64,000 nucleotides of DNA from a virus: IMG/VR virus record IMGVR_UViG_3300045988_079139, positions 68,378-132,377 of that record; one strand, written 5' to 3'. The notes beneath the pieces were generated by a model that ran no database searches, was not told the DNA's origin, and saw only the letters and a program-made list of their open reading frames with translations. Position numbers and translations under genes: made by a program. Shown here piece by piece: positions 1-46,310 of the stretch (its first letter is position 1; every line of letters starts with the position of its first letter).

Positions 1-2941
1 AATCCTTAGGTGAACTATAAGGTCTATTTGCAATGATTGCCGCAACCACATCATCACCTACGTTCAACATGCCCTTTAGACCGAACAAAATTCTATTGTT
101 TTCAACGTCGGGCGCAAAACCAAACTTAGACTTATTAATGTCAGCCAAGCTAACCTTAATACCGGCAGCCTGGATGTCACCAATCGCCTTTGCAACCTTA
201 CCATAGTCAGTTGCCGCAGTTCTACGAATCTTCGCAGACTTGTCCGGCAAGTCGATAAACTTTACGCCCTCAGCCAAATCTTGTGCTTCTGGAGCATAGA
301 TATCTACAATCTCTTCTTCGCTATTATCTTCCAAAGAACCACTGTTAACAATCAAACAAGCGGTATTCCAATAAATCGGATTGAAATTCATAACGAAATA
401 AATTGACTGAATACCAACAAAGGAGTAGGGCAATGAGTGATTAAGTGAGAACGCATAACCCAACTGAGGAGCAACTGCGTTTTCCCAGAAATAGTTTGCA
501 GATTGAACTCGGTCAAATCTACTATAAACCTGTTCGCGCAGTTCAGGAATCTTGGACATCTGCTTCTTTGCAACGACCTTACGAGCGCCGTTTGCTTCAC
601 CTAGAGTAAATCCAGCAACATCCATCAACAATTCCATCATCTGCTCCTGGAGAGCACAACAACCATAATACTGGTCGCAATGCTTGTGCATCAGAGCTTT
701 CTGTTCGTCAGTGAACAACGCTTTATCCATTTCCGCATCGAATACTCCCAAACCTTGATTTTGAATACGGACGAATCTATCCTGCTGAGACTCTTTATCC
801 TTTTCAGACATAAGTCTCATCATAGCGTTCGCCGCAGTCATCTCCATAGGATTCTGAGGCTTCAGTTTCTTTGCGATTGCAAGACCAACACCAGTTGAGA
901 ACTGGAATACGTCCATTACATCACCAGCCGCTAGGTGGTCCCAAATGCGTTGGTCAGATGTATCAATCACTTCTGGATGGATATACTTATTATACAAATC
1001 TCTTAATGGAAGCTTTTCAATTGCTCCATCTTCAGTTAACAAATCAAAACATTTAATAATCTTATCTGAAATTTCAGTTACAAGGAAGTCATACTTAGTA
1101 TCGCCTGCGGCTTCAGCCTTATGTAGGTCATAACAAGTAATTAAATCTCCACTTGGCGTTCTCATAAAACTTGCAGTTTCAAATGGGTCATCACCATATA
1201 GAATGACACCAGATGCGTGAGAAGAACGCTTATTAACCAATCCTTCGATGGACATAATAATATCCAACAAACCAGGATAGTTATTTACTTCACGAATGAA
1301 TGGAGCAACCGGTCTACGGTCTTTCTCATCATTACCATATACAACGTCATTAATGCTCCACAAGAATCCACGCTCTTGGGGGACAAGAGAGCTCATGTAC
1401 TGGGCAAGGTCGACGTCGATTCCATCTGGGAAATCCTCGCTTCGATAACCTCGACAAGCCGTAAGAATTGCTGACTTCGTGCCCTCCGTTCCAAAAGTGG
1501 CAACCTGGATGAGTCCGAGTTCTCCTCGTTCTTTGCGAATTGCATCAAAAATTGCAGGTCGCTTCGATGGAGCGAGGTCAATGTCGATGTCGGGCAGCTC
1601 GGCTCTTTCCTTATTAAGGAAACGCCAGTAAGGTAGATTCCATCGAATTGGGTCGAGCTGGGTGATTCCAAGGAGGTAATTAGAAAGGAAGCCTGTTGCT
1701 GAACCTCGTCCAGGTCCAACAATTGAGCCACATTCCCAGAACAAATCGATGTAGTGTTTGAAGGTGTTAAAATAGGCGAATAGACAGTCATCAAGTTTCT
1801 CTCCAATATATTTAATTACATCAGCTTCAGTTTCTAAGCGGTCTAAATATTCGCCACTCCACAAACCCTTTTCCTGTAATTCATTTAGACATTCATTTAC
1901 CCAATATCTCTCTTGAATTTCATCAGAATAACACAGAGCTTTTAGTAACGGATATCTAGCATTCCCCTCGGAGAACCAGCCGCAAGTCTGAGGATAATCA
2001 GGAACTGCGACCTTAGGAACTATTTGTTTACGCTCCAAGGAGTAGTCAGTAAACTTTTCTTTTAATTTGTCAGAATTGTGAAGAATTTGAGTTGCAATCA
2101 TTCCATCGCCAAAACATTTCTTCAACAACTCATATACTTCATTATATGTCATAAGATGAGCAAACTCGTAGAAGCTATCAACCTCACGCTCACCACCCTT
2201 AGAGTTCAAATAAGATTTATGAACAAATCTATCTGCTTTAGTTAGATAGTGAGAGTCAGTACCAACAATAATGGGAATATCATATGCCATAGCAATACGA
2301 TATAGTTTACGATTGGTTACACACTGGTCTTCTGCGGTTGAAGGCGCACATTCGATATAGAAGTCGTCTCCAAATACATCTTTACAATAAGTGATGAAAT
2401 CACAAATTTGGTCATAAAATACTTTTGCGGAATTCATATCTCCAACATTTTCCGCACACGCCATATTATAAGCAGCGGTAGATAATTCGCCACCCATACA
2501 CGCAGTTGACGCAACTACATGTCCTTTATACTTGGACATAATTTTTCTTAGTTCCTCTTTGGTAATCGGAACACGTTCCATACCACGGTCAACATAAGAG
2601 TTATACCAAGCAATAGAACTCAATTCACGAAGTGCTTTATGTCCCAAAGCATCTTTAGCCGCTAAGATAAAGTGATAATATTTAATACCATTTTCTCGTT
2701 TATCTACTAAATAAACCTCATTGCCAAGAACGATAACGAAGTCAGGATTCTTCTTCTTAATCTCCTTTGCATATTGATTCACTTCCATATGCGCACTAAG
2801 GCACTCATGGTCAGTAATCGCAATGCCAGACAGACCTAACTCAATCGCTTTGTCAATGAGGTCTTTTGGTCTATTGATACAATCGAGCAAACGGATATTC
2901 GAATACATCGTATGATTATGTATATTAAAATATGTTCCCAT
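1..2941 (-). CDS. dnaE: DNA polymerase III alpha subunit (DnaE-like), N-terminal ~980 aa; C-terminus lies beyond the left edge
   Basis: ATG at 2941-2939 (rc) opens a frame with no stop down to position 1. It is absent from the ORF track because no stop falls inside the window. Hand translation gives a PHP-domain N-terminus (MGTYFNIHNHTMYSNIRLLDC...ITDHECL) and later the DnaE-type motifs GPGRGSATGFLSNYLLGITQLDP and ...PDIDIDLAP. Confidence 0.8.
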   Translation of the reverse strand, partial: MGTYFNIHNHTMYSNIRLLDCINRPKDLIDKAIELGLSGIAITDHECLSAHMEVNQYAKEIKKKNPDFVIVLGNEVYLVDKRENGIKYYHFILAAKDALGHKALRELSSIAWYNSYVDRGMERVPITKEELRKIMSKYKGHVVASTACMGGELSTAAYNMACAENVGDMNSAKVFYDQICDFITYCKDVFGDDFYIECAPSTAEDQCVTNRKLYRIAMAYDIPIIVGTDSHYLTKADRFVHKSYLNSKGGEREVDSFYEFAHLMTYNEVYELLKKCFGDGMIATQILHNSDKLKEKFTDYSLERKQIVPKVAVPDYPQTCGWFSEGNARYPLLKALCYSDEIQERYWVNECLNELQEKGLWSGEYLDRLETEADVIKYIGEKLDDCLFAYFNTFKHYIDLFWECGSIVGPGRGSATGFLSNYLLGITQLDPIRWNLPYWRFLNKERAELPDIDIDLAPSKRPAIFDAIRKERGELGLIQVATFGTEGTKSAILTACRGYRSEDFPDGIDVDLAQYMSSLVPQERGFLWSINDVVYGNDEKDRRPVAPFIREVNNYPGLLDIIMSIEGLVNKRSSHASGVILYGDDPFETASFMRTPSGDLITCYDLHKAEAAGDTKYDFLVTEISDKIIKCFDLLTEDGAIEKLPLRDLYNKYIHPEVIDTSDQRIWDHLAAGDVMDVFQFSTGVGLAIAKKLKPQNPMEMTAANAMMRLMSEKDKESQQDRFVRIQNQGLGVFDAEMDKALFTDEQKALMHKHCDQYYGCCALQEQMMELLMDVAGFTLGEANGARKVVAKKQMSKIPELREQVYSRFDRVQSANYFWENAVAPQLGYAFSLNHSLPYSFVGIQSIYFVMNFNPIYWNTACLIVNSGSLEDNSEEEIVDIYAPEAQDLAEGVKFIDLPDKSAKIRRTAATDYGKVAKAIGDIQAAGIKVSLADINKSKFGFAPDVENNRILFGLKGMLNVGDDVVAAIIANRPYSSPKD

Positions 2942-2973
2942 ATGAATATCCTTTCACTATTTATTCTATAATA

Positions 2974-3002
2974 ATTATATCAAATTTTTTAATAAAAGTC
3001 AA
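2974..3002 (-). promoter_or_regulatory. sigma-A-like promoter TTGACT-N17-TATAAT
   Basis: Forward attata at 2974-2979 and agtcaa at 2997-3002, upstream of the dnaE start at 2941. Confidence 0.55.
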
Positions 3003-3622
3003 TTTACTTCTAAGTGACAATGCTTTTGACTATTAATTAAATCCAAAATTGTATAAAATAATGGATGATACATAGAAGGAGTCCACTCAGGAGACAAACA
3101 TAAAAATAATTTGTCCATATAAGGCAATTCTTCTAGTCTTGTTTCTTGATAGAGTTTAACTTTTGTGCGCGGATCATTTTCCCAGTGTGGAGGTAATGAT
3201 CCAGAATTAGTATTATTTAACCAAGTAAATTGTGTAATAATATTTTTGTTTAAATAATACTCACCCCAATTTGAGCAAGAGCATTCATCTTCTGCTGTTT
3301 CATCTTGTACATATCCTAAATCATGATGATGGTCTATTGAAAAAATATGTACATCTACCATATCATTAAGCATATATTTAATATCTTCATGATTCATAGA
3401 GATACGGATATCTTTAATTTGTAAATTTTGAGTTACTTGCAAAATATAGGACACCATTCTTTGATAGTGTTGCAAATCAGCTCTACATCCTGCAAGAATA
3501 GGATTTTCTTTGATGCGCTGTTCAATAGAACGACTACCATCTTCAGAAGTGCCCACCATAGAATTATATAAATTAATATCTGGTGCCATTATAATATCAA
3601 AATCAACACTCAATACATTCAT
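2999..3622 (-). CDS. hypothetical protein with a DHHHD metal-binding-like motif (possible deacetylase/arginase-fold)
   Basis: 207-aa ORF with the motif IFSIDHHHDLGY, tightly packed between neighbours. Function is not established. Confidence 0.45.
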   Translation of the reverse strand: MNVLSVDFDIIMAPDINLYNSMVGTSEDGSRSIEQRIKENPILAGCRADLQHYQRMVSYILQVTQNLQIKDIRISMNHEDIKYMLNDMVDVHIFSIDHHHDLGYVQDETAEDECSCSNWGEYYLNKNIITQFTWLNNTNSGSLPPHWENDPRTKVKLYQETRLEELPYMDKLFLCLSPEWTPSMYHPLFYTILDLINSQKHCHLEVN

Positions 3623-3623
3623 A

Positions 3624-4841
3624 TTATACTCCTTGTGTTAAAATAGTTTCTTCATTAACAACCCATACAAGCTTTTCACTAGCTCGAGTTGCTGCAGTAT
3701 ATGCCCAACGAGCGTGTTCGGTTTTATCAAAAGGGAACTTCTCTTCATAAACCATTACTTTACCCCACTCAGAACCCTGTGCTTTATGACAGGTAATACC
3801 ATAAGCATAGGCGAATTCAAATGGAGGGTCGGGACACTTGGGATTTTTACGCATCTGGAATTCTTGCTTACCAGTTAAGAATTTCTCACCAGTAGTCAAA
3901 GAAGTGTAATCAACGGGAATATAGTGGAATACATCACCATTCTCGTCAATCATATTTGTATATAAAATAGGAATTTTCTTTTCACTAATCCAAAATGGAA
4001 CTGTCATATTATATAAATCTGTGTTCTGAATGACTCCAATAGTACCATTAGTTAATGGGGCTGGATCAGTCTGACTCATAGAGAAAAATTCCCATTGATT
4101 TCTCAAACTAATAATCTTGTCACCAGTTGCGGGTTCGGGTCCAAACCCCTTAATCTGGCGCATATTCATGTTGATAGCATTTCTCTTTGCATTAGTAGCG
4201 CATAGAATCTGGTCAGCCCAATCATACATTCCAGTTACAATCTGACTAGGTTTAACAAACATAACTTGTTGACCGGTCGCAGGGAATTCATTGATAGGTT
4301 TACCTTCACGAATCCACATAGAGAAACGAATAATTTCACTATCATAAGCCTGTCGCATAATCTCGTCTAAGAAAATATGTGGATTGTCAAGCACATGATT
4401 ATCGCTATCTTTGTCGATTGGTGGTAGCTGGAATGGGTCGCCGCACGCAATAACGTGAATGCGATGTGACAACAATCTCAACCACATTTCTTTTGGAAGC
4501 ATAGAAACCTCATCGACAATAATAACTTCCAAGCCTTCATCCAGCATTGGCTTAGGCTCAAATTTAAAAGTGCCATTAGGCATAGGCTTTGCTTTATAAA
4601 GCAATTTATGAGCAGTATAAGGATTAGGACAACCCTTCTGCTTTAAAACTTGTGCGGCCTTGCCAGTATATGCAACATAGCAAACCTGCTCAGGCTCAAG
4701 ACCTAAGGCCGCAATAATAAACTTAATAAGTGTGGACTTACCTGTTCCCGCATAACCAGAGATACAAGTGTAGGATTCGTGTGCCTTATATCGAGCGACC
4801 GCAATCTTCAGTCCTTCTTCTTGTTTAGCTGTTAAAATCAT
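3624..4841 (-). CDS. SF1 DNA helicase, Dda/RecD-like
   Basis: Walker A GYAGTGKST, DExx-type IIVDEVSML, and C-terminal YGITCHKAQGSEW (motif VI). Confidence 0.85.
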   Translation of the reverse strand: MILTAKQEEGLKIAVARYKAHESYTCISGYAGTGKSTLIKFIIAALGLEPEQVCYVAYTGKAAQVLKQKGCPNPYTAHKLLYKAKPMPNGTFKFEPKPMLDEGLEVIIVDEVSMLPKEMWLRLLSHRIHVIACGDPFQLPPIDKDSDNHVLDNPHIFLDEIMRQAYDSEIIRFSMWIREGKPINEFPATGQQVMFVKPSQIVTGMYDWADQILCATNAKRNAINMNMRQIKGFGPEPATGDKIISLRNQWEFFSMSQTDPAPLTNGTIGVIQNTDLYNMTVPFWISEKKIPILYTNMIDENGDVFHYIPVDYTSLTTGEKFLTGKQEFQMRKNPKCPDPPFEFAYAYGITCHKAQGSEWGKVMVYEEKFPFDKTEHARWAYTAATRASEKLVWVVNEETILTQGV

Positions 4842-5125
4842 ATATCTTCCTCCTGGTCGTGTGCATGAAGCAACTGCTCAAGGGCATTATAGAAATGCAT
4901 CTTTCGATGACTCAATTGCTTACGAGCTTGCACAGGGTCAATTCTTTCAACAATTGCTTTATATGCTGCCAGTTCGTCTAAAGCTTCGGCATATCTAAAG
5001 TAGATACTATCGAAACCAAAATCAAGTCTATCTTTACACAGAGCATCAAAATCATCACGACTTACTGTTACAACATCCAATTTTTCTTTCATTTTCTTTG
5101 CATAGTCAGTCATTATAATTTTCAT
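4838..5125 (-). CDS. hypothetical protein
   Basis: 95-aa ORF with a TTGACT-N17-TATAAT promoter immediately upstream (5138-5166). Confidence 0.5.
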   Translation of the reverse strand: MKIIMTDYAKKMKEKLDVVTVSRDDFDALCKDRLDFGFDSIYFRYAEALDELAAYKAIVERIDPVQARKQLSHRKMHFYNALEQLLHAHDQEEDI

Positions 5126-5137
5126 CCTTTTATTTTT

Positions 5138-5166
5138 ATTATACTAATTTTTATATTAAAAGTCAA
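5138..5166 (-). promoter_or_regulatory. sigma-A-like promoter TTGACT-N17-TATAAT
   Basis: Forward attata 5138-5143, agtcaa 5161-5166. Confidence 0.55.
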
Positions 5167-5509
5167 CAGTAAAATCCCATACAGGTCGTTGATGTTTATA
5201 TTCCTCAGAATCAAGGTCGACAAATCCAGGTAAAAATGGATTTACCTCAATTTGAGAAAAAATTTCTAAATCACCTTTTTGATTTGGGTTTTCGGTCTTC
5301 GCGTCCATGGCCGACCGGAGGTCATTAATTTCCATTTCCAACACGGCTGTGCGGTTATCAAGTCCACTTTGAATATTTTCAGTTTCATATCTTAGGTCAT
5401 GTAAATCATCTTTAATAGCAGTGATTTCGTCACTATGATATTCAAGCCGAGACAAAGCCTCATTTAATCGAGCAATCGTATTAACCAACTCATAAGCGGT
5501 TATCCCCAT
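5156..5509 (-). CDS. hypothetical coiled-coil protein
   Basis: 117-aa ORF with heptad-like acidic sequence. Confidence 0.45.
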   Translation of the reverse strand: MGITAYELVNTIARLNEALSRLEYHSDEITAIKDDLHDLRYETENIQSGLDNRTAVLEMEINDLRSAMDAKTENPNQKGDLEIFSQIEVNPFLPGFVDLDSEEYKHQRPVWDFTVDF

Positions 5510-5651
5510 AGACTACATAGCATGACCGAGGTCTTGTAGTTGACTTGAAAATTGCTATGCTGATGAGCCAGGTAAATCATACTTTATACCGTTGACTACA
5601 ATAGAGTTAAGAAATGCCATTTTGAATTCTCCTATAAATAAAAATAAAGGT

Positions 5652-5683
5652 TATATGAGGAAATTAAAATTCCTCATATAACC
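5652..5683 (-). terminator. intrinsic terminator hairpin
   Basis: ttatatgaggaa / ttcctcatataa inverted repeat after the lysozyme-like gene, with a flanking T-rich run on the minus strand. Confidence 0.5.
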
Positions 5684-5691
5684 CTAGAATT

Positions 5692-6561
5692 TTAATTCGT
5701 AAAATAGTTATATGCTTTTTCAGCCAAACCTCTGCGATAGTTCTGACTGCCACCTGGACGTTCATAAATTACACAAAAAGCAATGGCTGCGTCGCCGCAA
5801 TCATCCATAACTTTAAATTGTTCATGTTTCATGCCGCTCTGATATAAATATCCATATCGGTCAATAACTTTTGGAAAAGAAACTGCCATAAAGGCTAATT
5901 GCTCTTCCAAACTTGCGCCCTGCATTTCTGGATAATATTTAGAAGACCACTGGCATAAACCATAATGATTTGAGGCATTATATAAATCCCATTGTAAATT
6001 CAGTGTATGTCCTCCGCATTCTGCCATCATATTACCAATTATACCTGCGCAAACAGCATCGCTATATCCTAATTCTTCTTTTAAGAAAAGCCATACTTGT
6101 GTAGCGACCGGATATTCCGATGCGCGTACTTCCCACTTGTGAATCTCTTCCCACTCAGCCTGCTTCTCTTGATAATAAGCAACATCAGCAGTTCTGTTTT
6201 CCAGCTCTGTGTATGCCATTACAATAGCTGGGTGGTCAGGCTCATAACCAAGCTCAATTAGTCCATCAAGAACCATTTGAGCAGTCTCTTGGCGCTTCGT
6301 AGCCTCATCCAAAAGACTATTGGCCTCATCATATGTAGTAGGTTCGACACGCTCGACCACTACGGTATCTAATATAATAACTACTTCTTCTGGCTCAGTA
6401 GGCTCAGGAAAGGTAGTTTCAGAAGGGATGTCAGCTTCCGAAAAAGTAGCAACTGGTTCTGTTGGGGTGTAATTAGCTGAAGCAGAGATAGTAATTGCTG
6501 CAGCAGTAATTAATACTAATGTAATAATTAGCATAACCCAACACAAAATATTTTTCTTCAT
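5692..6561 (-). CDS. membrane-anchored lysozyme-like peptidoglycan hydrolase (phage tail lysozyme-type domain)
   Basis: N-terminal TM helix, Pro/Thr/Glu-rich linker, and a C-terminal GIIGNMMAECGG...YGLCQWS motif. The motif resembles the lysozyme-like domain in the 864-aa hydrolase (YGVAGLMGNLYAESGL...YGLAQWT). Confidence 0.6.
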   Translation of the reverse strand: MKKNILCWVMLIITLVLITAAAITISASANYTPTEPVATFSEADIPSETTFPEPTEPEEVVIILDTVVVERVEPTTYDEANSLLDEATKRQETAQMVLDGLIELGYEPDHPAIVMAYTELENRTADVAYYQEKQAEWEEIHKWEVRASEYPVATQVWLFLKEELGYSDAVCAGIIGNMMAECGGHTLNLQWDLYNASNHYGLCQWSSKYYPEMQGASLEEQLAFMAVSFPKVIDRYGYLYQSGMKHEQFKVMDDCGDAAIAFCVIYERPGGSQNYRRGLAEKAYNYFTN

Positions 6562-6598
6562 AATTTCCTCCTAATATTTCTATCAGGCCGTCATTATT

Positions 6599-8344
6599 TT
6601 AGAAATAGTATTTCTGTTCTCCTACAATTTCGTAATCTTCGATTATAATTTGGGGTGTTACCGTTCCATTCCAAACATTGCGTTCGCATTTGCCCACAAC
6701 GTTGATAGTAATGCATCCGGTTTCGGAGCGTAGTTTTTCATACTCTTCCTGTGACGACTTGAATTTGATTAAACTCGTGCCATTTGGCAAGGTTATCTTC
6801 AGAGTCGGACTCTTATCGGGTGACATTAGAACTACATTACCTGCATATACATTAATGTGCTCAATTGCCACGAAAGGTTCATCGACTCCTTGGCCCCACA
6901 AAGATTTTAACTCAGCAATTTCAACAATATCTTTACCACGGAAATCTCCGCCGTTGAAAATAAAGTCAACCTTATAACATGGGGTAAAGTCAAATCCTGC
7001 TAGTTCTCGATTAGAGTATTCAATAAAGGTTTTGAACCATTCATCTGTGATGCCAACACCCAGGGCATTTGCGTGTCCTTCAGCATACATCACTAGTCCA
7101 CTTTCTTTCAAGAATTCTCTGAGGTTATCAAATCTGGATTTATCGTATCCTCTTCCTGAACCCTCCCAGCCATCAGCCGTTTTATTCAACAGAAGGACTG
7201 GTCGTTGATATTTCGCCATTAGTTGGTTTGCAATCAAACCAGTAAGGTTTCTATCGGCCGCAAAAGTATCCAGTTTAATAGCCAAAATCTTGTTTTCTAA
7301 CAGATTTTTCTCTTTGATTATGCGTTCAATGTTCTCCAAGGCTGCGTCTCTTGCTTTTGTCTGTCTATTTTTGATGTTTGTGCAATTACGACAAGCCTGC
7401 TCTACTCTCGTCTCTGATTGACCCTTACATCCTCTTTTGGTTGATGGGACTAGTTCATATCCCCGATAGTCAAGCATAGATTCGAATAGCATGAGCTTTT
7501 CTTCTTGCGTTCCCATTCTAATAGTGGCATTTACATAGGGAGCAATATAGAAAGCTACTCCAATCGGTGTGATTTCACCTTTTAGTGAGTAAGACTGTTT
7601 GTCTACCATACCTTTGAAGTAAGGATTGCGAATATTCTCAAGACCGCGTGTAATCAAATGTCTCGTTTCAAAATCTCGCAAATCCATCATGTCGGCCACC
7701 ATTCCCAGTGCGACCAAATCCAAATAATCGTCTGCGTAATCAACATTGAGAAGTTCATCCATATAAGAACAGAACTTATATACCATTCCAACTCCAGACA
7801 AAGACTTGGTTGGATAATCACAAAGTTGATTGTTAATAATCACAGCATTTTCGGAAATTTTATCTGCTTCATGGTGGTCAATTACCAACACATCTACCCC
7901 TTTGGACTTCAGCTGAAGATGTTCCTCATAGTCATTAGAGCTAGAGTCTGGTGCAATAACCAGTTTCACATCGTCAGGGATGGTTTCCAAAAGAATTCCG
8001 TGTTGTTTCCCCGTATGGATACGATAATATACGTTAGATTGCACAAAGCCGGGGAAAAGACGATTTAAATAGTTGATAAGTGCGGCGGCTGAAGTGTAAC
8101 CATCACAGTCGCTATCAATCTAAACTAGAACTTTGTCTCCTTGTGCAATATGTTTGATGAGGACTTTAACGCCCTCTTCGACATTCATAATTAGTTTTGG
8201 ATTTAGAATGTCTTCATCGGTTGTGTTTAAATAGTGTTCTACATTTTCGGGGTCAATGCCTCGATTAAAAAGCACCTGTTCGACCGCGCTTAATTCTCTA
8301 GGCGGGATGCGAGATGCAAAAAGTTGATATTCCATAGAATTCAA
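6599..8344 (-). CDS. recJ: RecJ-like DHH/DHHA1 single-strand DNA exonuclease with an in-frame TAG codon at 8120-8122
   Basis: ORFs 8120..8344 and 6599..8044 share one frame. Together they read ...VEQVLFNRGIDPENVEHYL...GDKVLV-TAG-IDSDCDGYTSAALINYL..., the canonical RecJ N-region and DHH motif I (D-x-D-x-D-G). A DHHA1-like GHANALG lies later. TAG must be decoded as sense for an intact enzyme. Confidence 0.75.
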
Positions 8345-8714: not shown

Positions 8715-9814
8715 AGAACAATCCTCTCTTTAAATAACTGTAAAAATGTGTCGGGGCCGCAGTCAATAGGACTGTCTTTATATCCAGTAATCATATTCTT
8801 GTCGAAAATAAATGAAATCAAAACAAAATTCTTATACTTATCTCTTAATCTCATTAAGTTAGTTTTTAAATGTTTAAACTCTTCATCGCCAATTTCTTGA
8901 AACTGTCTATCGAATGCGACAATAATTTCCTCTGCTCCGGCTTCCAGTAGCATTTGTATCTGGTAATTCGATACACTTGAGCCGCAGCACGCAACTGAAA
9001 TATCATTTTCTAAACCAAAATATGACTGATATAACAGACAAGATTTTTCGCCTTCAAAAATAATCGCTTTCTTCATCAGTTTGATTTTATCTTTGCTATT
9101 ATTGAAGTTGTATAAATTCATTCCAAGAGGATGGTTATACATTTCACGATTAACTCTCATAGGTCTATACTTGCCGAATCGCTCGCCCTCTTCCGCACAC
9201 AATGTTCGTCCACGCAAACCTATGAATCGACCATCTTTGTCAAAATGCGGAATTGTGATTTGGTCGCCTCCTGGATAATAACCAATTCTTGCTTGGTCAA
9301 GTGCGGCTTGGGTAATACCTTCCCGCAACCAGGGACCTATCTTCACTGAATAGTTGAAGCGTTCCAATATATCATTTTCATATTCTTTCAAGACGATTGA
9401 ATTGGTCTTCACCGTAATATCTTGAATTCGCTCGTAGTTAGCTAGGTATTTCCAATCGTCTAATGCTTCATCTTCTGGACGATTTTCATGGTCGCCAGAA
9501 AATCCAAATCTTTGAGCAATCCACCTAACTGCGTCATTTAGGTCGAACTCTTTATCCCATTGGATTTTAGCGACCTTAGTAGTTAGTTCGAAAATATCAA
9601 AGTAGCTATCACAGCCTGTATAACAACGGAACAAACCAGTGTTTTCATAATAATACAACTTACGACTGCCTTCTCCGGGAGGATTGTGGCAAATAGTGGT
9701 GGAGGTGAACCCGAATACCTCTCTACCCGGGTCACCACCCCACTCGTGTAACAAGTCGTATATATTTTCGTCTGTAAGAGCTTCTCTGATTTTCAGTTTG
9801 TCAAATACTAACAT
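8711..9814 (-). CDS. DNA primase (DnaG-like zinc-binding + TOPRIM)
   Basis: CHC2-like zinc motif ICHNPPGE...FRCYTGCDSYFDIFEL; TOPRIM-like IIFEGEKSC and VAFDRQF. Confidence 0.7.
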   Translation of the reverse strand: MLVFDKLKIREALTDENIYDLLHEWGGDPGREVFGFTSTTICHNPPGEGSRKLYYYENTGLFRCYTGCDSYFDIFELTTKVAKIQWDKEFDLNDAVRWIAQRFGFSGDHENRPEDEALDDWKYLANYERIQDITVKTNSIVLKEYENDILERFNYSVKIGPWLREGITQAALDQARIGYYPGGDQITIPHFDKDGRFIGLRGRTLCAEEGERFGKYRPMRVNREMYNHPLGMNLYNFNNSKDKIKLMKKAIIFEGEKSCLLYQSYFGLENDISVACCGSSVSNYQIQMLLEAGAEEIIVAFDRQFQEIGDEEFKHLKTNLMRLRDKYKNFVLISFIFDKNMITGYKDSPIDCGPDTFLQLFKERIVL

Positions 9815-10251
9815 TAGTTCACGTCAACGAGAACTCTGACGCAGAATCCCTTCAAACCGCACTCGCGGTTAACATAGTCACAGAGAATTTCCTGTGCGGG
9901 CTTAGGCAGCTTACCATTCTTACCCTTGGCATCCTTGAGGATTTCCTCAGCCATAATCTTGCCCATCTTGTACTCAATAGTGCCAGCACAAACTTCGGGA
10001 GCGGGAATGGTTTCACGCTTTTTGTTGAAGTTGTTGTCCATACGAGGAACATTGTTGTTGGGCTTGCGATTATTGTTTCTCTTGCCGCTGTTGTTATTCT
10101 TCTTCACAAAATCTGCCATAGTATTTATCTCCTTTTTATTTACAATTCCAAAATCGGAATCTTCTAACAAATTTAATTTTCTTCTTGAGCCTCGCTCAAT
10201 CTTCACACTCGAAAGCTGACTCGTCATCGATTCTAATACGAACATCATCAA
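9814..10251 (-). CDS. hypothetical basic Asn/Lys-rich protein (true start probably the internal MADFVKKN)
   Basis: ORF with a low-complexity basic stretch; overlaps the end of the DnaB-like gene. Confidence 0.4.
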   Translation of the reverse strand: MMMFVLESMTSQLSSVKIERGSRRKLNLLEDSDFGIVNKKEINTMADFVKKNNNSGKRNNNRKPNNNVPRMDNNFNKKRETIPAPEVCAGTIEYKMGKIMAEEILKDAKGKNGKLPKPAQEILCDYVNRECGLKGFCVRVLVDVN

Positions 10252-11737
10252 TACTCACCATTTCATAATCATAAGTAGTACAGAACATCGGCTTGATTCT
10301 ACAACAACCCAAGTCTGCCTTACACCATAAGATAACACCTTTATATCGTCCTCGTCTATTTTTGTAAATTGACATTTTAATTGTAGGTCTTTCAAAAATA
10401 TTAGAGGACAATATATTTTCCAGAGCTACTAAATCATCATCTTTTACAGACAATAAAATAGCACCATAGTCAATCTTATCTGCGATTGCCTTAGCGCCAC
10501 GCAGTAGGTTCTGGTCAGGGGTTTTACTATCTTGATAATCACCGTTCAACTGAGTGGCTGACATAATAAACACACCATACTGATTACAGATATCTTTCAA
10601 TCTTGTTGATAGCATGAACAGAATATTATCTTCGCGCAGCTTAACTCCGCCCGAACGTTTTGTGATTTCTTCCAAGATTTTCAAACTTGTATGAATATAA
10701 TCGTGGAACACATATTTAACATCGTGTTCACGAATATTCTTCTTAATTTTATTCTCAACATCCTGTAGAGAGAAGTCAGGCAACTCTTCTACATAAATGG
10801 GACTTTCTTTCAAAAGTTTTGCGGCCTGGAGTACTCGTTCCTCTTCGCCCTCACCATATTCGCCATTAAGGATATGTTCCTCATTGACATTAGATAAGAA
10901 CGCAAGCATCATAGTCTGAATTTCTTCAAGCTCCTGCTCGGTTGTGATGAACAATACTGGTTCCGCAGGTCCACTACCAATCCAACCAAAATTCTCGTCA
11001 TAAATCTTATTACAGCCAATATAGCAGCAGTCCGCAATCATTGAACGAGTTTTACCGATACCAGTTGCTGCAGAACGAAGATAAAATTTCTTCAATCTTG
11101 CGCCACGAGTAACTGTGTTGATAAGTGGTCCATATAGAGGTACACCAACTTCTGGATGCTCCTTAAACTTTTCAATTAGGTCAAAAATACCGTCACCGGC
11201 TTGTTGGGCTTCGCCAAAGGCGTCGTCAACATACTGCAACCTAATTGCATCAATCTTTTCATCAACCTTGTTTGCGATTTCTTCAAGTGTCGCATTATCA
11301 AGATGGTCCTCCTGTAACTGCTTCTTTTTTGTATCTAGAATATTATCTGCGTCATAAATGTCTGTAACATCAATTCCGCAGTTATCATATGCACGAAGCA
11401 AAGAGAACTTCTTTAGTCGTCCATAATAATAATCAAATGCTGATGGCATAGCGTTCTCTGAAATTTTCAGTAACCACTCTTCGCCCTTGCCTTGCTTATA
11501 TACCGCAGCACTCTTGGGTCTTGACGATAAGAAATCGGAAATGCTTTCCAATGTGATTTTATTCGCACCCAGTTCATGGATTTTATAAATCGCACCAAAA
11601 ACGGTTTTATGGAAAGGGTCTGCGAAATCTTCATCGACAATTGAATATCTATCAGTCGCTTCCAGAAGCTGAGGGGTATTAAACACGCAGCCAATGACCT
11701 GCATAATTGCAGTTGTGTCTACATACTTACTGCCCAT
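10196..11737 (-). CDS. dnaB: DnaB-like replicative DNA helicase
   Basis: DnaB N-terminal domain features (AIMQVIGCVFNTPQLL...DFADPFHKTVFGAIYKI) and a RecA-like core with P-loop AATGIGKTRSM. Confidence 0.8.
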   Translation of the reverse strand: MGSKYVDTTAIMQVIGCVFNTPQLLEATDRYSIVDEDFADPFHKTVFGAIYKIHELGANKITLESISDFLSSRPKSAAVYKQGKGEEWLLKISENAMPSAFDYYYGRLKKFSLLRAYDNCGIDVTDIYDADNILDTKKKQLQEDHLDNATLEEIANKVDEKIDAIRLQYVDDAFGEAQQAGDGIFDLIEKFKEHPEVGVPLYGPLINTVTRGARLKKFYLRSAATGIGKTRSMIADCCYIGCNKIYDENFGWIGSGPAEPVLFITTEQELEEIQTMMLAFLSNVNEEHILNGEYGEGEEERVLQAAKLLKESPIYVEELPDFSLQDVENKIKKNIREHDVKYVFHDYIHTSLKILEEITKRSGGVKLREDNILFMLSTRLKDICNQYGVFIMSATQLNGDYQDSKTPDQNLLRGAKAIADKIDYGAILLSVKDDDLVALENILSSNIFERPTIKMSIYKNRRGRYKGVILWCKADLGCCRIKPMFCTTYDYEMVSIDDVRIRIDDESAFECED

Positions 11738-16579: not shown

Positions 16580-17572
16580 TTATTTAATACTATATCCAAA
16601 CTCTTTTGCTTTAAAATAATCTTGCCAGAAATCTTCTCTTTCGTCCAGTAGGGTACGGTCGCACTCTTCAACAATCTCGAAAGTAAAGTTCTCGGGTCCG
16701 GCCGCGATCATCGCAGGATATAATTTATTACGAGTGGGTGTTTCAGCACCTACTCCTCTTTTGATATGCTATTTCCATCTATCTGCAATATTAGCAGCTT
16801 GTCCGACATAGCACTTTCCAGTAGCAATCTCGGTTAATTTATAGATACCAGTATGAACGCCAGAACCTACAACTCTACCAATCATATCAGTAGTTGGTTT
16901 TTCGTAATAGCATTTCCATATAACCTTATTTAAAGGCTCTTTATCGCGCAAATAGGGTTCTACTTCACGCAGAAGCTCAATTTCGTGGAGGTCTGCGGCA
17001 GAAAGCTAAATGCGATAGTAGTCTTGCTGGTCTTTCATTTCAGCTGCTCTCTTGGCTGCGGCAACAGCTGCGTCATTCATGGAGCGCATAAGAGCAACAT
17101 TTCCCTCTAAGGATTTGTACTATTCCATTAAGGTAGCTACGGTTTCTTGATACTATACTTCAAAAGAGGCAACATTCTCTTGATATTTCTAAGCTTCAAT
17201 CTCCAGAGAGCGAGCTAGATTTTCTTGAGCAACTTCCATTTTTGAAGTATAAAATAAATCAGCAGCTTCTTGAGCCTGCCTTTCCATAGCTGTAAGACTA
17301 CTATTCAAAGTATTAATCTATTCAATGGCTGAATCCTTTTGGAGTAGCAGCCTAGTGTTTTCTTCGGTAAGTCGTTTAGTTTCATTTTCAAGCCATATGC
17401 GACCTTCTTCAGCTAAACGATTCTATTCTAAAATTTCTTCGTTCCTCTAAGCAGTCTGCGTATCTAACTCCTACGCCGCCTAAATGCGGGGACGCAGAAT
17501 GCGATATACAACATATCCCGTAATAAGAGACGATAAGATGAACGAAATTAGAAAGATAAGTAATTCCACCAT
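16580..17572 (-). CDS. TAG-interrupted ORF: N-terminal TM helix + long coiled coil + C-terminal GIY-YIG nuclease domain (I-TevI-like catalytic domain)
   Basis: One reading frame of about 330 codons with no TAA/TGA but 11 in-frame TAG codons (forward-strand cta at about 16769, 17006, 17120, 17153, 17189, 17318, 17423, 17447, 17471, 17480, 17534). C-terminus reads GIYKLTEIATGKCYVGQAANIADRWK-TAG-HIKRG...ENFTFEIVEECDRTLLDEREDFWQ. This aligns to I-TevI GIYQIKNTLNNKVYVGSAKDFEKRWKRHFKDL...NVFECSILEE...ERENFW. It is intact only if TAG is read as an amino acid. Confidence 0.5.
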
Positions 17573-17588
17573 ATGGAAGAAAAATGGG

Positions 17589-17616
17589 GTAAGATATTAA
17601 AATATCTTACCCCTTG
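17589..17616 (-). terminator. intrinsic terminator (13-bp perfect stem)
   Basis: ggggtaagatatt aaa atatcttacccc followed on the minus strand by tttttcttcc. Confidence 0.6.
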
Positions 17617-17628
17617 TATATGTCAAAA

Positions 17629-17904
17629 TTACTCAGCAGCTTCTTCAGTTGCATCAGGATCGAAGCTCATGCCTGCAGGAGTCAGAGACAGGAACTTAAC
17701 CTGCTTGTGAGTACCATCCTCCAGCTCGATCTCGGCGGGAGTACGAACACCCAAGCCCTTGCGCTGAATAGCGGAAGTGAAGATGCCATCAACAGAGCGC
17801 TTCTCCAAACCTAGAGCAGCAGCAACGTCAGCAGCAGTTACATTCTCGCCAGCAATCTCCTTCAAATAATTTAGAACCTTCTTGGAATTTTCCTTCATAG
17901 CCAT
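17629..17904 (-). CDS. hypothetical protein (possible small DNA-binding regulator)
   Basis: 91-aa ORF; consensus promoter upstream (17978-18006); perfect hairpin terminator downstream (17589-17616). Confidence 0.5.
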   Translation of the reverse strand: MAMKENSKKVLNYLKEIAGENVTAADVAAALGLEKRSVDGIFTSAIQRKGLGVRTPAEIELEDGTHKQVKFLSLTPAGMSFDPDATEEAAE

Positions 17905-26141: not shown

Positions 26142-26546
26142 TTACTCAACAGGAACGATTTTGCTAATATTAACCTCAGCCTCAATCTTATTAGTAATGT
26201 AAGCAGCTACATCACCATAAATTTCAGCTAAATAATCTTTAGCATCATCAGTTAAAATAGCCATAACCGCATTATAGGTTAATTGGAATGCTTCTTTCTG
26301 AGCTTCAGCAGTGAAAGCATTCTGTTTCTTCAATGCTTCAACATAGGTCTGATTAGTTGCGATAACGCAGGCAGAAATGGTATCAGCAACCATTCCAATA
26401 TACTTATCAGCATTATCATTATCAACATTGTGCTGAATTTCAGCGCTCTTTGCATTGATAAATTTAACGACATAAGCAGTTAAAACACCCAATAGAGGGA
26501 TTACACAAACCTGTAAAATTTCATATAACATAGGTAGCCATTCCAT
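26142..26546 (-). CDS. small membrane protein (holin/antiholin-like candidate)
   Basis: N-terminal TM helix LQVCVIPLLGVLTAYVV; sits directly downstream of the peptidoglycan hydrolase. Confidence 0.45.
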   Translation of the reverse strand: MEWLPMLYEILQVCVIPLLGVLTAYVVKFINAKSAEIQHNVDNDNADKYIGMVADTISACVIATNQTYVEALKKQNAFTAEAQKEAFQLTYNAVMAILTDDAKDYLAEIYGDVAAYITNKIEAEVNISKIVPVE

Positions 26547-26563
26547 ATAGTTAATCCTCCTTA

Positions 26564-26884
26564 TTATCCATTTGCAGAATCATCAAACTGCTCTGGTGGG
26601 ATATCTTCGTGATAATCAGCCATTACAGTTTCATATTTGATTCCGCCTTTTGTATTTTCTTTTTCCGCTTTGCGGAAGTAGAATGCTTGACTTGCTCCAT
26701 ATGCGGTCCAAGGGAAGCCGCACATAGCAGCCAACCAAGGTAACTCACCAAAGAACTAGTTTGTTACGCACACGAACGCAAGAATGATAAATGCAATGGT
26801 AATAATCCAAATCAACATTGACTCTTGGAGCAATAATCTTTTGGAAAATTCCATTTTATTTTCGGTTTTCTTTTTCATTTTCAT
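26564..26884 (-). CDS. small membrane protein with one in-frame TAG (holin-like candidate)
   Basis: Hand translation: MKMKKKTENKMEFSKRLLLQESMLIWIITIAFIILAFVCVTN-TAG-FFGELPWLAAMCGFPWTAYGAS...DDSANG, ending at TAA. Not in the ORF track because the TAG splits it into pieces under 60 aa. Confidence 0.4.
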
Positions 26885-27046
26885 CACCTTTTATTAAAAA
26901 TAACTCATTCTTACTTATCTTATCATATCTATTTATCTTAATTATCTTACACGGTATCATATGCTCGCCACTTCTTTGTGCGCCCACTCGCGCTATAAAA
27001 AGACTGAAGATAATAAAAATGTTCAGAATGAGTTATAATAAACAAA

Positions 27047-29641
27047 TTAGAGCTTCTTAGTGTAATCTAAGTGAATCCAGCCTGCGCCAGACTTCAATTT
27101 ACCCCAACCATTTTTCTCGCCAATAATGGTATAAACACCATTGCGCTTTACTTGGGTGTTAATTTTAAAGTTAGTACCAGCTCCTGCTCTTACATTCAAT
27201 ACATCAGTGTTAATTTGTACTAAATAAGGAGTAAAGCCAGGGTCAGCGACCGCAGTAGACCATGATACTACGCTATTGGCTTTTACAACACCGGTCACAG
27301 GACCGCTGGACTTAGTGGAAATAACATAATCGCCATTTTTGCGGATTTCTCTCAAATATAACTTTGCATTAAATACCCAAGAAGGAATAGTTCCTCCAGA
27401 AGCATATTTAACACCTGGAATTAGGCGTAATTCATCACCAACTGCAAATTTAGAAGGCTCAACAGGAGTAATCACACTTTGCTTAGGATATACAATTTCA
27501 CCCTTGCTGTTAAATACTTTATACTCTGCGCCGGCCTTGTCGCAAGCTACTTGAGCATTTTTTAGAGAGGTATATGCACCAGCTTGTGATTTTGCGTCTT
27601 CCCAAGACTTGCGGATTCTATACATTTCACTAATAGGAGCTTCTGGGGTTGTTGGCTGACTAGGTTGTTCAGGAGCTACAGTAGGAGTTTTATTTCCTAA
27701 TAGCTCAGCAACATCGTCTCTAACAGTAGCCATAGATTTACCATGTTTTGGGAACCAGTGATTTACGTCTCCATGGTTAGATCCCAATCCTAATTTATGA
27801 GAATCTGCATGGCACAAAATAGTAGGAACTTGCACGCCATTTACAGTTACAGTGCCATGAGGATCAATATCATACATATCACATAAATATGCAGTAAGTT
27901 CGCAAGCTTCTTTATATACCTTGTCAAAATATGTTTTATCAGTCAATCCATCTTCACAAATTTCAAACTGAATCCAACCATTATTACAAGAGCCCTTAGA
28001 CCCAGAACCACATCCCCAAGGCTTGTAATCCCAGGGCATAGTTTGAACAGTTGTTACAGTTCCATCGGCAAGCTTACCAATCCAACAGTTAAGTCCCGCC
28101 TGGTGACTAATATGATTCCAGTCGTTTTTATTATTATTAGTTCCTAATAATTTTAACATTTCTGCTCTGTCTGGAGCATTGTCGCTTGGCTGTACATAGC
28201 GTTTTAAAGTTGGGTTATTTGCCCCAGTAGAATGCCACAACACGCCTTTAACAGTCATTTTTGATGTACCCTTATAGCAGGTGCTTTGAGTTTGCATACA
28301 TACAAGGGGCTTATTAGATGCGCTATATTTCATTTTTCCGTTTCCTCCTTCGCTTGGAACAGAGGGCTTTGGACTCTCAGGCGCGGGAGTAGCCTTCGTT
28401 CCATAACTATCAAAATATTTTTGTCCATATTCAGCTCTTTTATTCTGAACGTTTACACTCTGGTCGGCTGGACGTTCAAATTTTAAAAGAACAGCATTAG
28501 ACGCTTCAAGAACAGTTTTTGCTGTTTGTAGAGTAGTCCAAACAGACTTGTAACTAGTTGACAATTGATAAGCCAAGAATTCCATTTGTGTTTCTAAATC
28601 ACCAATAGATTTTTTCTTATTCTTAAAATAATTTAGCATTTCTTGTTTTAAGCTCCAGTAAGTCCACTGAGCTAAGCCATAACCAGCCTTATCGTTTACG
28701 AAATTGGTATAAGTTCCTGCGTCTACTGCAGCAGTATATTCTGCGTCAGTCATGCCAAGAGACTTCTCATAAGTATTTTGTAAATTACAAGAACGCAAAC
28801 CAGATTCTGCATATAGGTTACCCATTAAACCAGCTACACCATAATCATTTAAGCCTTTAGACTTAAAATAATCCCACATTTTCTTAGGGTCGGCCGCTCT
28901 AGTATCGACCTTACTTGTGTCTGGTTTTACTTCTTCTTTTGGAGCTTCTTGAATAGTAGCTGAGTAAACTACCTCACCTTTTGAATTAAAAACATAATAA
29001 CCAGTTCCAGCTTTGTCACAAGCATTTTTAGCATTTTGTAACACAGTATATGCGCCAATTTGAGATTTTGCATCAGCCCAAGACTTGCGCACTCTATACA
29101 TTTCTTTAGTTACAGTTTCCACGGGTTTTTCCTCTTTCTTTTCTTCTTCCTTGAAAGTGCCACCAAAAGTTTTCACATTGCTTGCACCACCATCATACCA
29201 GAAGTATTTAGAGGTACGAGTATCAACATGAACGCCCCAGCTATAAACACCAATACCTAATATGCCGATATGCTCAGCATACTGAGCTACTTCAAGTGGA
29301 GTTACTCCACTAATTCTAATATCTGCGGCTTCTCCATCCATATGATTAGACTGAGATGCTCCACCTACACTAGCATTGTGAGTCTTACATCTATAACCGC
29401 TATTGATATTTACAGACTTACCAAAATGGTCTCGAATCTTTTGGAGATATTCGACCAACTTTTCGTCTACTTTAGTAGAAGAGCAGCATCCTGAGCCATG
29501 GCAATCAAACTCTGTTGATTTAAAATTGGTACTCAAGGTTACTGCTGTACCCTTTTTATAGGTTTTAATAGCCATTTTTTCTCTCCTTTCTAAAAATTGA
29601 TATGAAAAAACCCTAGTGGGAAAATCCACTAGGGTTAACAT
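27047..29641 (-). CDS. multidomain peptidoglycan hydrolase (M15 peptidase + lysozyme-like + amidase_2 + SH3b, with tandem ~50-aa repeats)
   Basis: N-terminal VanY/M15 motifs (INSGYRC..HN...SNHMDGEAADI), lysozyme-like GNLYAESGL...YGLAQWT, amidase_2-like GVLWHSTGANNP...CHADSH...NHGD...HW, and an SH3b-like C-terminus. Two copies of an EMYR(V/I)RKSW(A/E)DAKSQ.GAYT.L.NA..ACDKAG..Y.VFNSKGE(V/I)VY repeat. Confidence 0.85.
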   Translation of the reverse strand: MLTLVDFPTRVFSYQFLERREKMAIKTYKKGTAVTLSTNFKSTEFDCHGSGCCSSTKVDEKLVEYLQKIRDHFGKSVNINSGYRCKTHNASVGGASQSNHMDGEAADIRISGVTPLEVAQYAEHIGILGIGVYSWGVHVDTRTSKYFWYDGGASNVKTFGGTFKEEEKKEEKPVETVTKEMYRVRKSWADAKSQIGAYTVLQNAKNACDKAGTGYYVFNSKGEVVYSATIQEAPKEEVKPDTSKVDTRAADPKKMWDYFKSKGLNDYGVAGLMGNLYAESGLRSCNLQNTYEKSLGMTDAEYTAAVDAGTYTNFVNDKAGYGLAQWTYWSLKQEMLNYFKNKKKSIGDLETQMEFLAYQLSTSYKSVWTTLQTAKTVLEASNAVLLKFERPADQSVNVQNKRAEYGQKYFDSYGTKATPAPESPKPSVPSEGGNGKMKYSASNKPLVCMQTQSTCYKGTSKMTVKGVLWHSTGANNPTLKRYVQPSDNAPDRAEMLKLLGTNNNKNDWNHISHQAGLNCWIGKLADGTVTTVQTMPWDYKPWGCGSGSKGSCNNGWIQFEICEDGLTDKTYFDKVYKEACELTAYLCDMYDIDPHGTVTVNGVQVPTILCHADSHKLGLGSNHGDVNHWFPKHGKSMATVRDDVAELLGNKTPTVAPEQPSQPTTPEAPISEMYRIRKSWEDAKSQAGAYTSLKNAQVACDKAGAEYKVFNSKGEIVYPKQSVITPVEPSKFAVGDELRLIPGVKYASGGTIPSWVFNAKLYLREIRKNGDYVISTKSSGPVTGVVKANSVVSWSTAVADPGFTPYLVQINTDVLNVRAGAGTNFKINTQVKRNGVYTIIGEKNGWGKLKSGAGWIHLDYTKKL
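29605..29636 (-). terminator. intrinsic terminator hairpin
   Basis: aaaaaa ccctagtgg gaaaatc cactaggg, immediately after PhoH. Confidence 0.55.
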
Positions 29642-33604: not shown

Positions 33605-33657
33605 TCTGAGTCTCCTTTCTGTTGAGGCTCAGTTTGCTCAACCGTATTTTCTTGAAC

Positions 33658-46294: not shown

Positions 46295-46310
46295 AGGACA
46301 TTCTCCTTTC

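Follow-up and report, generated by a model that had tools for sequence, protein, structure and literature searches.

Closest described systems

SNIPE consists of a transmembrane (TM) helix, a DUF4041 domain and a GIY-YIG-type nuclease, and it cuts injected phage DNA (Saxton et al., Nature 2026, PMC13190303). Without its membrane anchor, the protein is highly toxic and cuts the host DNA (PMC13190303). A second system of relevance is found in gut phages with a recoded stop codon, in which a preference for the recoded stop is limited to a small number of gene families, including lysis genes and an intron endonuclease in an early gene (10.1101/2021.08.26.457843). A TM protein of a lysis cassette also belongs to these families, and crAss and Agate phages are among the cases described (10.1101/2021.08.26.457843). 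Stop-codon recoding in phages is regarded as a way to control when dangerous late proteins are made, and there are few concrete and testable genes beyond the lysis genes. Here, we analyze a 64,000-nucleotide stretch of a gut phage (IMG/VR record IMGVR_UViG_3300045988_079139, positions 68,378 to 132,377), hereafter called the window, which contains a TAG-rich gene on its minus strand. It is a core gene of a code-15 phage and probably encodes a membrane-anchored GIY-YIG nuclease, the production of which would be conditional, throttled and dependent on suppressor tRNAs.

With this gene, a recoding strategy that is already known gains another example. It resembles the situation in other code-15 gut phages (10.1101/2021.08.26.457843; PMC9523058; PMC10607447) in that TAG aligns with glutamine, that tRNA(CUA) is encoded by phages, here by relatives of the phage in the window, that most replication genes are compatible with the standard code, and that a few families are strongly biased towards TAG. 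However, the biased family is in this case a core membrane-anchored nuclease rather than an intron passenger, the putative gate occurs along with a conserved terminator upstream and with a start site that lacks a Shine-Dalgarno (SD) sequence, and there is an early bias in that the first glutamine codon is TAG. With ten TAG codons in an almost TAG-free block, TAG-free orthologs in standard-code relatives and an early first TAG, the gene is a defined test object. It belongs to a large family of membrane-anchored GIY-YIG proteins from uncultured gut and rumen phages that has no name in any source. This family has the layout of SNIPE without the homology, which suggests that phages convergently use a "nuclease on a membrane leash".

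A conserved gene with TAG read as glutamine

The preliminary description of the gene, made from the DNA alone, had reported a long open frame with about 11 TAG codons. The frame is indeed open over 330 codons without TAA or TGA, while the number of in-frame TAG codons is ten, at codons 31, 34, 42, 50, 85, 128, 140, 151, 189, and 268 (Table 1). Under the standard code, translation would end after 30 residues, at codon 31, and translation table 11 splits the region into fragments of 30-60 amino acids. A codon model trained on the long open reading frames (ORFs) of the window gave the frame a score of +0.30, and the five other frames scores of -0.45 to -0.96. Codons 31-330 are under purifying selection, as indicated by a ratio of nonsynonymous to synonymous substitution rates (dN/dS) of 0.07-0.15 in comparisons with the homologs in L001 and L004 (L numbers denote the related sequences used for comparison). 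A protein search retrieved thousands of full-length homologs, of which the best matches are 319-338 amino acids long and 70-97% identical. Because of the codon score, the dN/dS values and the many homologs, a frame that is open by chance is excluded, and the frame is confirmed to be a real, conserved and translated gene.

The short fragments obtained with table 11 are what would be expected from a decaying pseudogene, or from an assembly or sequencing artefact. We assign a negligible probability to either of these, since the frame is interrupted by TAG alone, with neither TAA, TGA, nor frameshifts, since dN/dS is around 0.1, and since the same TAG-only pattern is repeated in dozens of independent assemblies. 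The conservation data thus refute the idea of a damaged gene.

The TAG columns were compared in the DNA of 38 homologous genes, no two of them identical, taken from contigs in IMG/VR and ENA, because the database translations of the homologs already take TAG as glutamine. These genes contain 0-12 TAG codons each, at largely different positions, and no TAA or TGA. At the TAG column in the CYVGQA motif, the sequences from other lineages have CAA or CAG in 30 of 30 cases, and these codons are also found in 12 of 16 sequences at one of the TAG columns in the stalk and in five of five at another. Glutamine is the most enriched residue at the TAG columns (2.8-fold). Furthermore, TAG is avoided as a true stop in the genes of the window, which end with TAA (51), TGA (16), and TAG (1). 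Judged from these comparisons, TAG encodes glutamine (genetic code 15) in the gene and in the phage.

No tRNA genes were found in the 64-kb window, nor within 10 kb of the gene in the 38 homologous loci. By walking from the gene at the right end of the window into 85%-identical contigs, we located two tandem tRNA(CUA) genes in relatives, about 5 kb past the right end of the window (L112, 4709-4858; L111, 1154-1303), and the pair was confirmed with the Rfam tRNA model. Both genes begin with U1, and G73 is apparently present. U1 and G73 are identity elements for glutamine, and the pair is presumably charged with this amino acid. The dependence on amber suppression that had been suggested from the DNA is plausible, considering that TAG aligns with conserved glutamines, that it ends only one of 69 genes in the window, and that close relatives encode two tRNA(CUA).

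A homolog is also present in phAss-1, a distant code-15 phage deposited as "Caudoviricetes code 15 clade" (PMC10607447). This homolog (OQ749652, 63005..63985; L070, 11467..12447) is about 327 amino acids long, contains eight TAG codons and is located about 300 nucleotides upstream of two tRNA-Sup-CTA genes. Read with TAG as glutamine, it has the TM helix, the stalk and the GIY-YIG domain in one gene. In the GenBank record of phAss-1 it is split into two hypothetical ORFs, an example of the practical problem that annotation with table 11 shreds the gene.

Table 1. Positions of the nuclease gene, its domains and TAG codons, its upstream region, and other features of the window. TAG is read as Gln.
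Feature	Position	Strand	Details
Gene for the predicted membrane-anchored, stalked GIY-YIG nuclease	16580..17572	-	330 sense codons and a TAA stop (16580-16582)
Single TM helix, codons 2-24	17501..17569	-	No Lys or Arg before the helix; R24, R27, and R29 after it; helix in the AlphaFold2 model
Helical stalk, codons 25-181	17030..17500	-	Coiled-coil-like, Gln-rich, variable; 8 of the 10 TAG codons; continuous helix in the AlphaFold2 model, pLDDT ~90; low conservation
Small conserved helical domain, codons 183-234	16871..17026	-	DFYRIQLS..DL.EI..LRE..PYLRDKEPLNKVIWKCYYEKP; ahead of the nuclease; AlphaFold2 helices 192-203 and 212-234
Predicted GIY-YIG catalytic domain, I-TevI type, codons 239-328	16589..16858	-	Y244, Y255, R265, H269, and E313 conserved; equivalent of N90 is Ser328
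First in-frame TAG, codon 31	17480..17482	-	Directly after the membrane helix
Eight further TAG codons	within 17006..17473	-	17471-3, 17447-9, 17423-5, 17318-20, 17189-91, 17153-5, 17120-2, and 17006-8 (codons 34, 42, 50, 85, 128, 140, 151, and 189)
TAG, codon 268	16769..16771	-	Inside the catalytic motif RWK-Q-HIKRG; sense codon at this position in 29 sequences, 26 of which have CAA or CAG
Pyrimidine-rich leader, 13 nucleotides	17573..17585	-	No SD sequence
Intrinsic-terminator-like hairpin	17586..17613	-	12-bp stem and 4-nucleotide loop, then ATTTTTCTT; ATG 13 nucleotides beyond the stem
Weak promoter-like site, TTGACA-16-TATTTT	17599..17626	-	10 of 12 matches; overlaps the hairpin; conservation does not extend to distant lineages
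Upstream 91-amino acid gene	17629..17904	-	Acidic C-terminal tail, strong SD sequence, strong promoter at 18006-17978
RecJ/DHH-like exonuclease gene	6599..8344	-	One TAG, 8120-8122, in DHH motif I (KVLV-TAG-IDSDCDG)
Lysis cassette	26142..29641	-	864-amino acid lysin (M15 peptidase, tail lysozyme, amidase, SH3), 2-TM gene, holin (phrog_13712)
Conserved small 2-TM gene between lysin and holin	26564..26884	-	One TAG, 26756-26758; CAA or CAG in relatives

Density and placement of the TAG codons

In the flagged gene, TAG makes up 3.03% of the codons, as compared to 0.028% (4 TAG in 14,520 codons) in the 48 other long minus-strand ORFs. The earlier statement that TAG is near zero elsewhere in the window therefore holds as a matter of degree, although zero is not reached, as two other genes contain TAG. 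Counted per glutamine codon, the TAG share is 10 of 21 (48%) in this gene and 4 of 494 (0.8%) in the remaining long ORFs (P=1e-12, Fisher). The excess is not confined to the window: all 19 representative lineages have a higher TAG share in this gene than in the neighboring genes (P=2e-6, Wilcoxon), and among the lineages that use TAG, the density per codon is 0.9-3.65% in the family gene versus 0-0.8% in its neighbors. Homologs without TAG are found only where the neighboring genes also lack TAG. The density persists even though the TAG codons change position from one lineage to another (65 alignment columns). The high density per codon is in part explained by the stalk, which is rich in glutamine.

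The placement of the codons is also biased. Of 14 independent lineages, 10 have TAG as their first glutamine codon, as compared to an expectation of 4.15 (Poisson-binomial, P=9e-4). Fisher's combination of the P-values for the rank of the first TAG was uninformative (P=0.38), each of these P-values being bounded below by the TAG fraction. In five lineages, a TAG just behind the membrane helix is found in place of arginine, lysine or proline rather than glutamine. The excess of TAG at the first glutamine codon and the replacement of these three residues argue for selection on TAG in its capacity as a stop codon.

Expression signals

The gene upstream, which encodes a protein of 91 amino acids, has a TTGACT-17-TATAAT promoter and looks strongly expressed. 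It is a constant upstream neighbor in the clade of the window and in relatives, and its product has no match in Pfam or PHROG. Between this gene and the nuclease gene there is a terminator-like hairpin, as had been proposed from the DNA, but it is located at 17586-17613 rather than at 17589-17616. It has a folding free energy of -18.4 kcal/mol (z=-5.1) and a T-rich tract after the stem. The same layout, with different stem sequences and compensatory changes, occurs in nearly all lineages. The 18 nucleotides before the ATG have an anti-SD duplex energy of +3.6 kcal/mol, which is the weakest of 67 genes in the window (median -8.5). The TAG-free relatives L044 and L046 retain both the terminator and the layout without an SD sequence.

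The preliminary description had also stated that the gene lacks a promoter of its own. No consensus promoter is present, but this is not specific to the gene, as the downstream genes for a 90-amino acid protein and ThyA likewise appear to lack one. From 17599 to 15373, the minus strand yielded no promoter-like site, and read-through of the terminator, or the weak site at 17626-17599, must therefore also serve these two downstream genes.

Proposed conditional production of the nuclease

Taken as a whole, these features fit a gene that would be limited at several steps. Transcription would occur only through read-through of the strong upstream terminator, or from the weak promoter that overlaps with it, and the start of translation would be limited by the lack of an SD sequence. 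Completion of the protein would be conditional, as 10 of the 21 glutamine codons are TAG, of which the first is placed directly after the membrane helix and another is placed in a catalytic motif. With the host machinery alone, the ribosome should halt after 30 residues, and the full-length, active nuclease would be made only once the phage tRNA(CUA) out-competes release factor 1. Since the yield would be the product of ten suppression events, the output should be steeply dependent on the suppressor level. The TAG codons may then serve as a safety lock or a timer for a potentially genotoxic enzyme.

Several observations weigh against this reading. The suppressor tRNAs were seen in relatives of the phage and none is present in the 64-kb window itself. 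The copy in phAss-1 has its own SD sequence and a -10-like box, which makes the layout with a terminator and no SD sequence lineage-specific. The holin and the large lysin are TAG-free, and TAG is consequently no general lysis lock in the phage. The position of N90 in I-TevI is occupied by serine in the window (Ser328) and in most family members, and by asparagine in a few. A SNIPE-like role is suggested only by the layout, with no detectable homology outside the membrane segment. In a relative that is 94% identical, the TAG share of glutamine codons is 44% in a deoxynucleoside monophosphate (dNMP)-kinase-like gene, 38% in a RuvC-like gene and 21-33% in tail-fiber-like genes, the latter of which are located on the opposite strand. 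Finally, the excess of TAG over the neighboring genes is not significant in lineages that use TAG broadly (L030, P=0.66; L026, P=0.30; L018, P=0.13). Part of the density could thus reflect membership in a "late" codon class, in combination with a stalk that is rich in glutamine.

The last three points also bear on a neutral explanation, according to which this is a post-code-switch gene in which TAG is a free synonym of CAG and CAA, accumulated in a glutamine-rich stalk and without any special regulation. The 48% share is similar to the shares in the RuvC-like, dNMP-kinase-like and tail-fiber-like genes of the relative, the widely TAG-using lineages show no significant excess, and the TAG positions drift between lineages, all as expected from neutrality. 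However, the first glutamine codon is TAG more often than expected, TAG replaces arginine, lysine or proline behind the helix in several independent lineages, and the TAG share exceeds that of the neighbors in each of the representative lineages. In addition, the surrounding block is otherwise TAG-free, and the terminator and the missing SD sequence limit the gene too. We therefore regard a purely neutral origin of the TAG load as rather unlikely. Among the TAG-using genes of the phage, which have TAG shares of 21-50%, the gene is near the top of the recoded class with its 48%, yet it is embedded in an otherwise almost TAG-free block.

A stronger version of conditional, suppressor-dependent production is that the gene is a two-state device. 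Early in infection, or without suppression, it would yield a membrane micropeptide of about 30 residues, the first glutamine codon behind the helix being TAG in most lineages. Once tRNA(CUA) is active, read-through at ten sites, with a multiplicative effect, would give in a switch-like manner a tethered nuclease that cuts the DNA of superinfecting phages where it enters. This nuclease would have evolved independently of SNIPE, from a domain of the I-TevI type, and would be encoded by the phage. We consider this version doubtful. If true, the gene would be the first example of an ultrasensitive timer of an inter-phage weapon that is set by how many recoded stops a gene contains and where they are placed.

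Protein architecture

The order of a membrane helix, a stalk and a C-terminal I-TevI-like domain, which had been read from the DNA, is borne out by hydropathy, AlphaFold2, and Pfam (Table 1). The N-terminal peptide had been quoted one residue short, the true sequence being MVELLIFLISFILSSLITGYVVYRIL. The Kyte-Doolittle maximum over 19 residues is 2.43, at residues 4-22, and this is the only strongly hydrophobic segment of the protein. Basic residues are absent ahead of the helix in every lineage examined and are clustered behind it in nearly all of them. The predicted topology is N-out/C-in, with the remainder of the protein in the cytoplasm, and a periplasmic or spanin-like topology was rejected because of the distribution of basic residues.

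The AlphaFold2 model, which was based on an alignment of 82 diverse family members, has a mean predicted local distance difference test score (pLDDT) of 89.7, whereas the C-terminal half was below 50 when an alignment of 21 close homologs was used. In the model, one helix extends over residues 2-181, including the membrane segment, and the C-terminal domain has the order beta-beta-alpha-alpha-beta-alpha, consistent with the GIY-YIG fold. The stalk had been described as a heptad coiled coil. The long continuous helix agrees with this, but the support for one global heptad register is no more than moderate, with a hydrophobic fraction of 0.58 at the a/d positions versus 0.34 elsewhere. No Pfam family matches the small helical domain at codons 183-234.

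The Pfam profile for GIY-YIG nucleases (PF01541) matches the recoded translation at residues 242-322 (E=6e-8) with 33.3 bits, above the gathering score of 22.6, and it also matches 82 of the 82 diverse family members. The residues Y244, Y255, R265, H269, and E313 are invariant in these 82 sequences, and R265 and E313 align to R27 and E75 in I-TevI. The catalytic tyrosines, arginine, histidine and glutamic acid of the predicted endonuclease thus appear to be intact. None of the 82 members contains a NUMOD, helix-turn-helix (HTH), or zinc finger domain from Pfam, and the earlier suggestion that a DNA-binding domain is lacking agrees with both the Pfam scan and the AlphaFold2 model, in which none is recognizable. 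The fusion had been considered unusual. The architecture is real, but it is not a one-off, as the family comprises 483 clusters (50% identity, E<1e-30).

Comparison with SNIPE and other GIY-YIG nucleases

For the comparison, the SNIPE gene was recovered via the published primer sequences, and hhalign was run with the single sequence and with a 28-sequence profile. The recovered copy is located in a lambdoid prophage, beside ren, P and O. SNIPE (PD-lambda-1) and the protein described here are alike in that a single-pass TM helix, oriented N-out and with a basic cluster behind it, is followed by a helical region and a cytoplasmic C-terminal nuclease of the GIY-YIG superfamily, as predicted in our case. 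In both systems, the DNA is phage-derived and the N-terminal part is highly variable, while the nuclease is the most conserved part. They differ in length (500 versus 330 amino acids) and in distribution, SNIPE being found in proteobacterial genomes and the present family in large uncultured phages, the contigs of which are mostly labelled Bacillota. They also differ in domain content, in that SNIPE homologs contain PF10544, PF13455, and PF13250, while the present family contains PF01541 alone. DUF4041 (PF13250) was not found in any of the 82 members at E<=0.01, nor in the window protein at E<=1, and none of the 82 members has a nuclease domain of the T5orf172/MUG113 type (PF10544/PF13455). 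With hhalign, the TM segment alone aligns between the family and SNIPE, for the single SNIPE sequence as well as for the profile, and nothing was obtained at DUF4041 when the two family profiles were compared. PADLOC gave no match to PD-Lambda-1. On these comparisons, the resemblance to SNIPE is architectural rather than familial.

The differences from I-TevI (PDB 1LN0, 1MK0) and other GIY-YIG homing endonucleases are that the protein has neither a linker nor a DNA-binding domain, that it has an N-terminal anchor and a stalk, that its gene has a fixed position, and that N90 is replaced by serine. T4 endonuclease II (DenA; PDB 2WSH), PD-T4-3 (PDB 9U75) and Uzume UzuA are single-gene GIY-YIG nucleases of phage-host conflict, and with these only the nuclease domain matches; there is no evidence of a TM helix, a stalk or a conserved helical domain in common. 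For example, residues 241-327 match positions 184-275 of 278 in the UzuA profile (E=4e-8), a match that covers the nuclease domain alone and not the full length. To our knowledge, none of these three nucleases is gated by recoded stops.

Possible targets of the nuclease

A membrane-anchored nuclease with this topology would cut DNA at the inner side of the membrane. Incoming DNA of competing phages would be its most likely target, which would make the protein a phage-borne functional analog of SNIPE. Host DNA or unpackaged DNA might be cut instead. More broadly, superinfecting DNA, host DNA, and replication intermediates are all candidate substrates.

An alternative with the same architecture and gating, but another role, is that the nuclease degrades the host DNA or acts on replication and recombination intermediates of the phage at a membrane-attached replication site. 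T4 endonuclease II degrades host DNA, and the membrane-attached site would be comparable to that of the membrane organizer p16.7 of phi29. The gene is located in a replication and nucleotide-metabolism block beside the genes for ligase, gyrase, ThyA, and DHFR, and the other TAG-containing genes of the block are DNA-processing and plausibly late (RecJ-like, RuvC-like). However, it is not obvious what a membrane tether and a long stalk would contribute to bulk degradation of host DNA, and no domain for DNA binding or interaction with the replisome was detected in the Pfam scan. Neither is there any sign of a protective modification of the phage DNA, and the presence of ThyA and DHFR suggests ordinary synthesis of deoxythymidine monophosphate. 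On balance, we find a role other than the exclusion of competing phages to be possible, but not very likely.

Genomic location and origin of the gene

The gene is found in the order ligase, 63-amino acid gene, 91-amino acid gene, nuclease gene, ThyA, and DHFR, with gyrase and ligase upstream. It is present at this site in all 14 of the loci that cover it in a set that was fetched via the ligase, independently of the nuclease gene, and the position is kept across lineages down to about 45% identity. Its codon score of 0.30 is within the interquartile range of the genome (0.28-0.46), and its GC content is 39.9% versus 41.9%. Thus, it is a core gene of the phage with a native composition, and not a foreign gene. 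The separate origin that had been suggested by the TAG density is contradicted by the codon score, the GC content and the constant slot.

A free-standing homing endonuclease, or a foreign gene recently acquired from another TAG-recoded element, would account for the catalytic domain being nearest to I-TevI, for the label "homing endonuclease" that PHROG and PADLOC give to the domain, and for a TAG density sharply unlike that of the neighbors. With native codon usage and GC content, a fixed locus, and a membrane anchor instead of a NUMOD, HTH, or zinc-finger module, this is largely refuted and has a very low probability. Furthermore, the ortholog in L142 is itself split by a canonical 305-amino acid GIY-YIG homing endonuclease, so that the gene is a target rather than an invader. 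In the split ortholog (IMGVR_UViG_3300028591_004954, 8851..10821), an insert of about 1.2 kb directly follows CYVGQA, and the homing endonuclease that it encodes has C-terminal DNA-binding repeats. The insert could represent an intron or else a free-standing invader. No group I intron was identified in L142 with Rfam at the gathering score, and no RNA family was identified in the window.

The family is spread among uncultured gut and rumen phages. Among bacterial assemblies, it was found solely on contigs from metagenome-assembled genomes, many of which are 50-176 kb long and mostly labelled Bacillota. The contigs related to the gut phage of the window reach about 170-200 kb. No near-identical DNA was found among cultured and deposited phages, and a tblastn search gave only matches to the nuclease domain and a partial match to phAss-1, the full architecture being present in no cultured phage.

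Other genes of the phage

The window contains a minus-strand array of about 70 genes, with a coverage of 91% under the standard code. The RecJ-like gene has two TAG codons in the 94%-identical relative, and the copy in the window is split by table 11 into ORFs of 74 and 481 amino acids. The lysis cassette differs from those in the crAss and Agate phages of Borges et al. in that the holin and the 864-amino acid lysin are TAG-free, and its pattern is unlike the published preferential recoding of lysis enzymes. The only gene in the window with a TAG stop is located at 33535..34221 on the minus strand. If this TAG is read as glutamine, 40 codons are added to the gene up to position 33535, and the extension has a poor codon score of -0.17.

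The use of the other glutamine codons also varies between the genes of the phage. TAG-free genes favor CAG (317 versus 172 CAA), while TAG-using genes are poor in CAG. The counts of CAA, CAG, and TAG are 8, 3, and 10 in the nuclease gene, and 8-16, 0-1, and 3-5 in the tail-fiber-like genes (L116, 2..7835). It appears to be CAG in particular that TAG has replaced.

Long ORFs on the plus strand (for example 54805..57393, 44762..46324, and 61144..62769) were dismissed as antisense codon-bias artefacts that mirror the minus-strand genes, some of them being open only if TAG is read through. Four further gene products of the phage, all from the minus strand, are a GmrSD_N and HNH protein resembling type IV restriction enzymes (62912..63880), a protein with major-vault-protein shoulder and repeat domains (54805..57330), a homolog of the Thg1-like tRNA-His guanylyltransferase (48766..49704), and a factor of the sigma-70 family (47621..48535). 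Just past the right end of the window, the relative L112 contains a full-length ROOL RNA at 305..918 (RF03087, 327.8 bits), and adjoining it are ten tRNA genes at 1816..8237, including the tandem tRNA(CUA) pair. A short partial match to an OLE-like RNA (53.4 bits) is located at 6764-6851 in L112.

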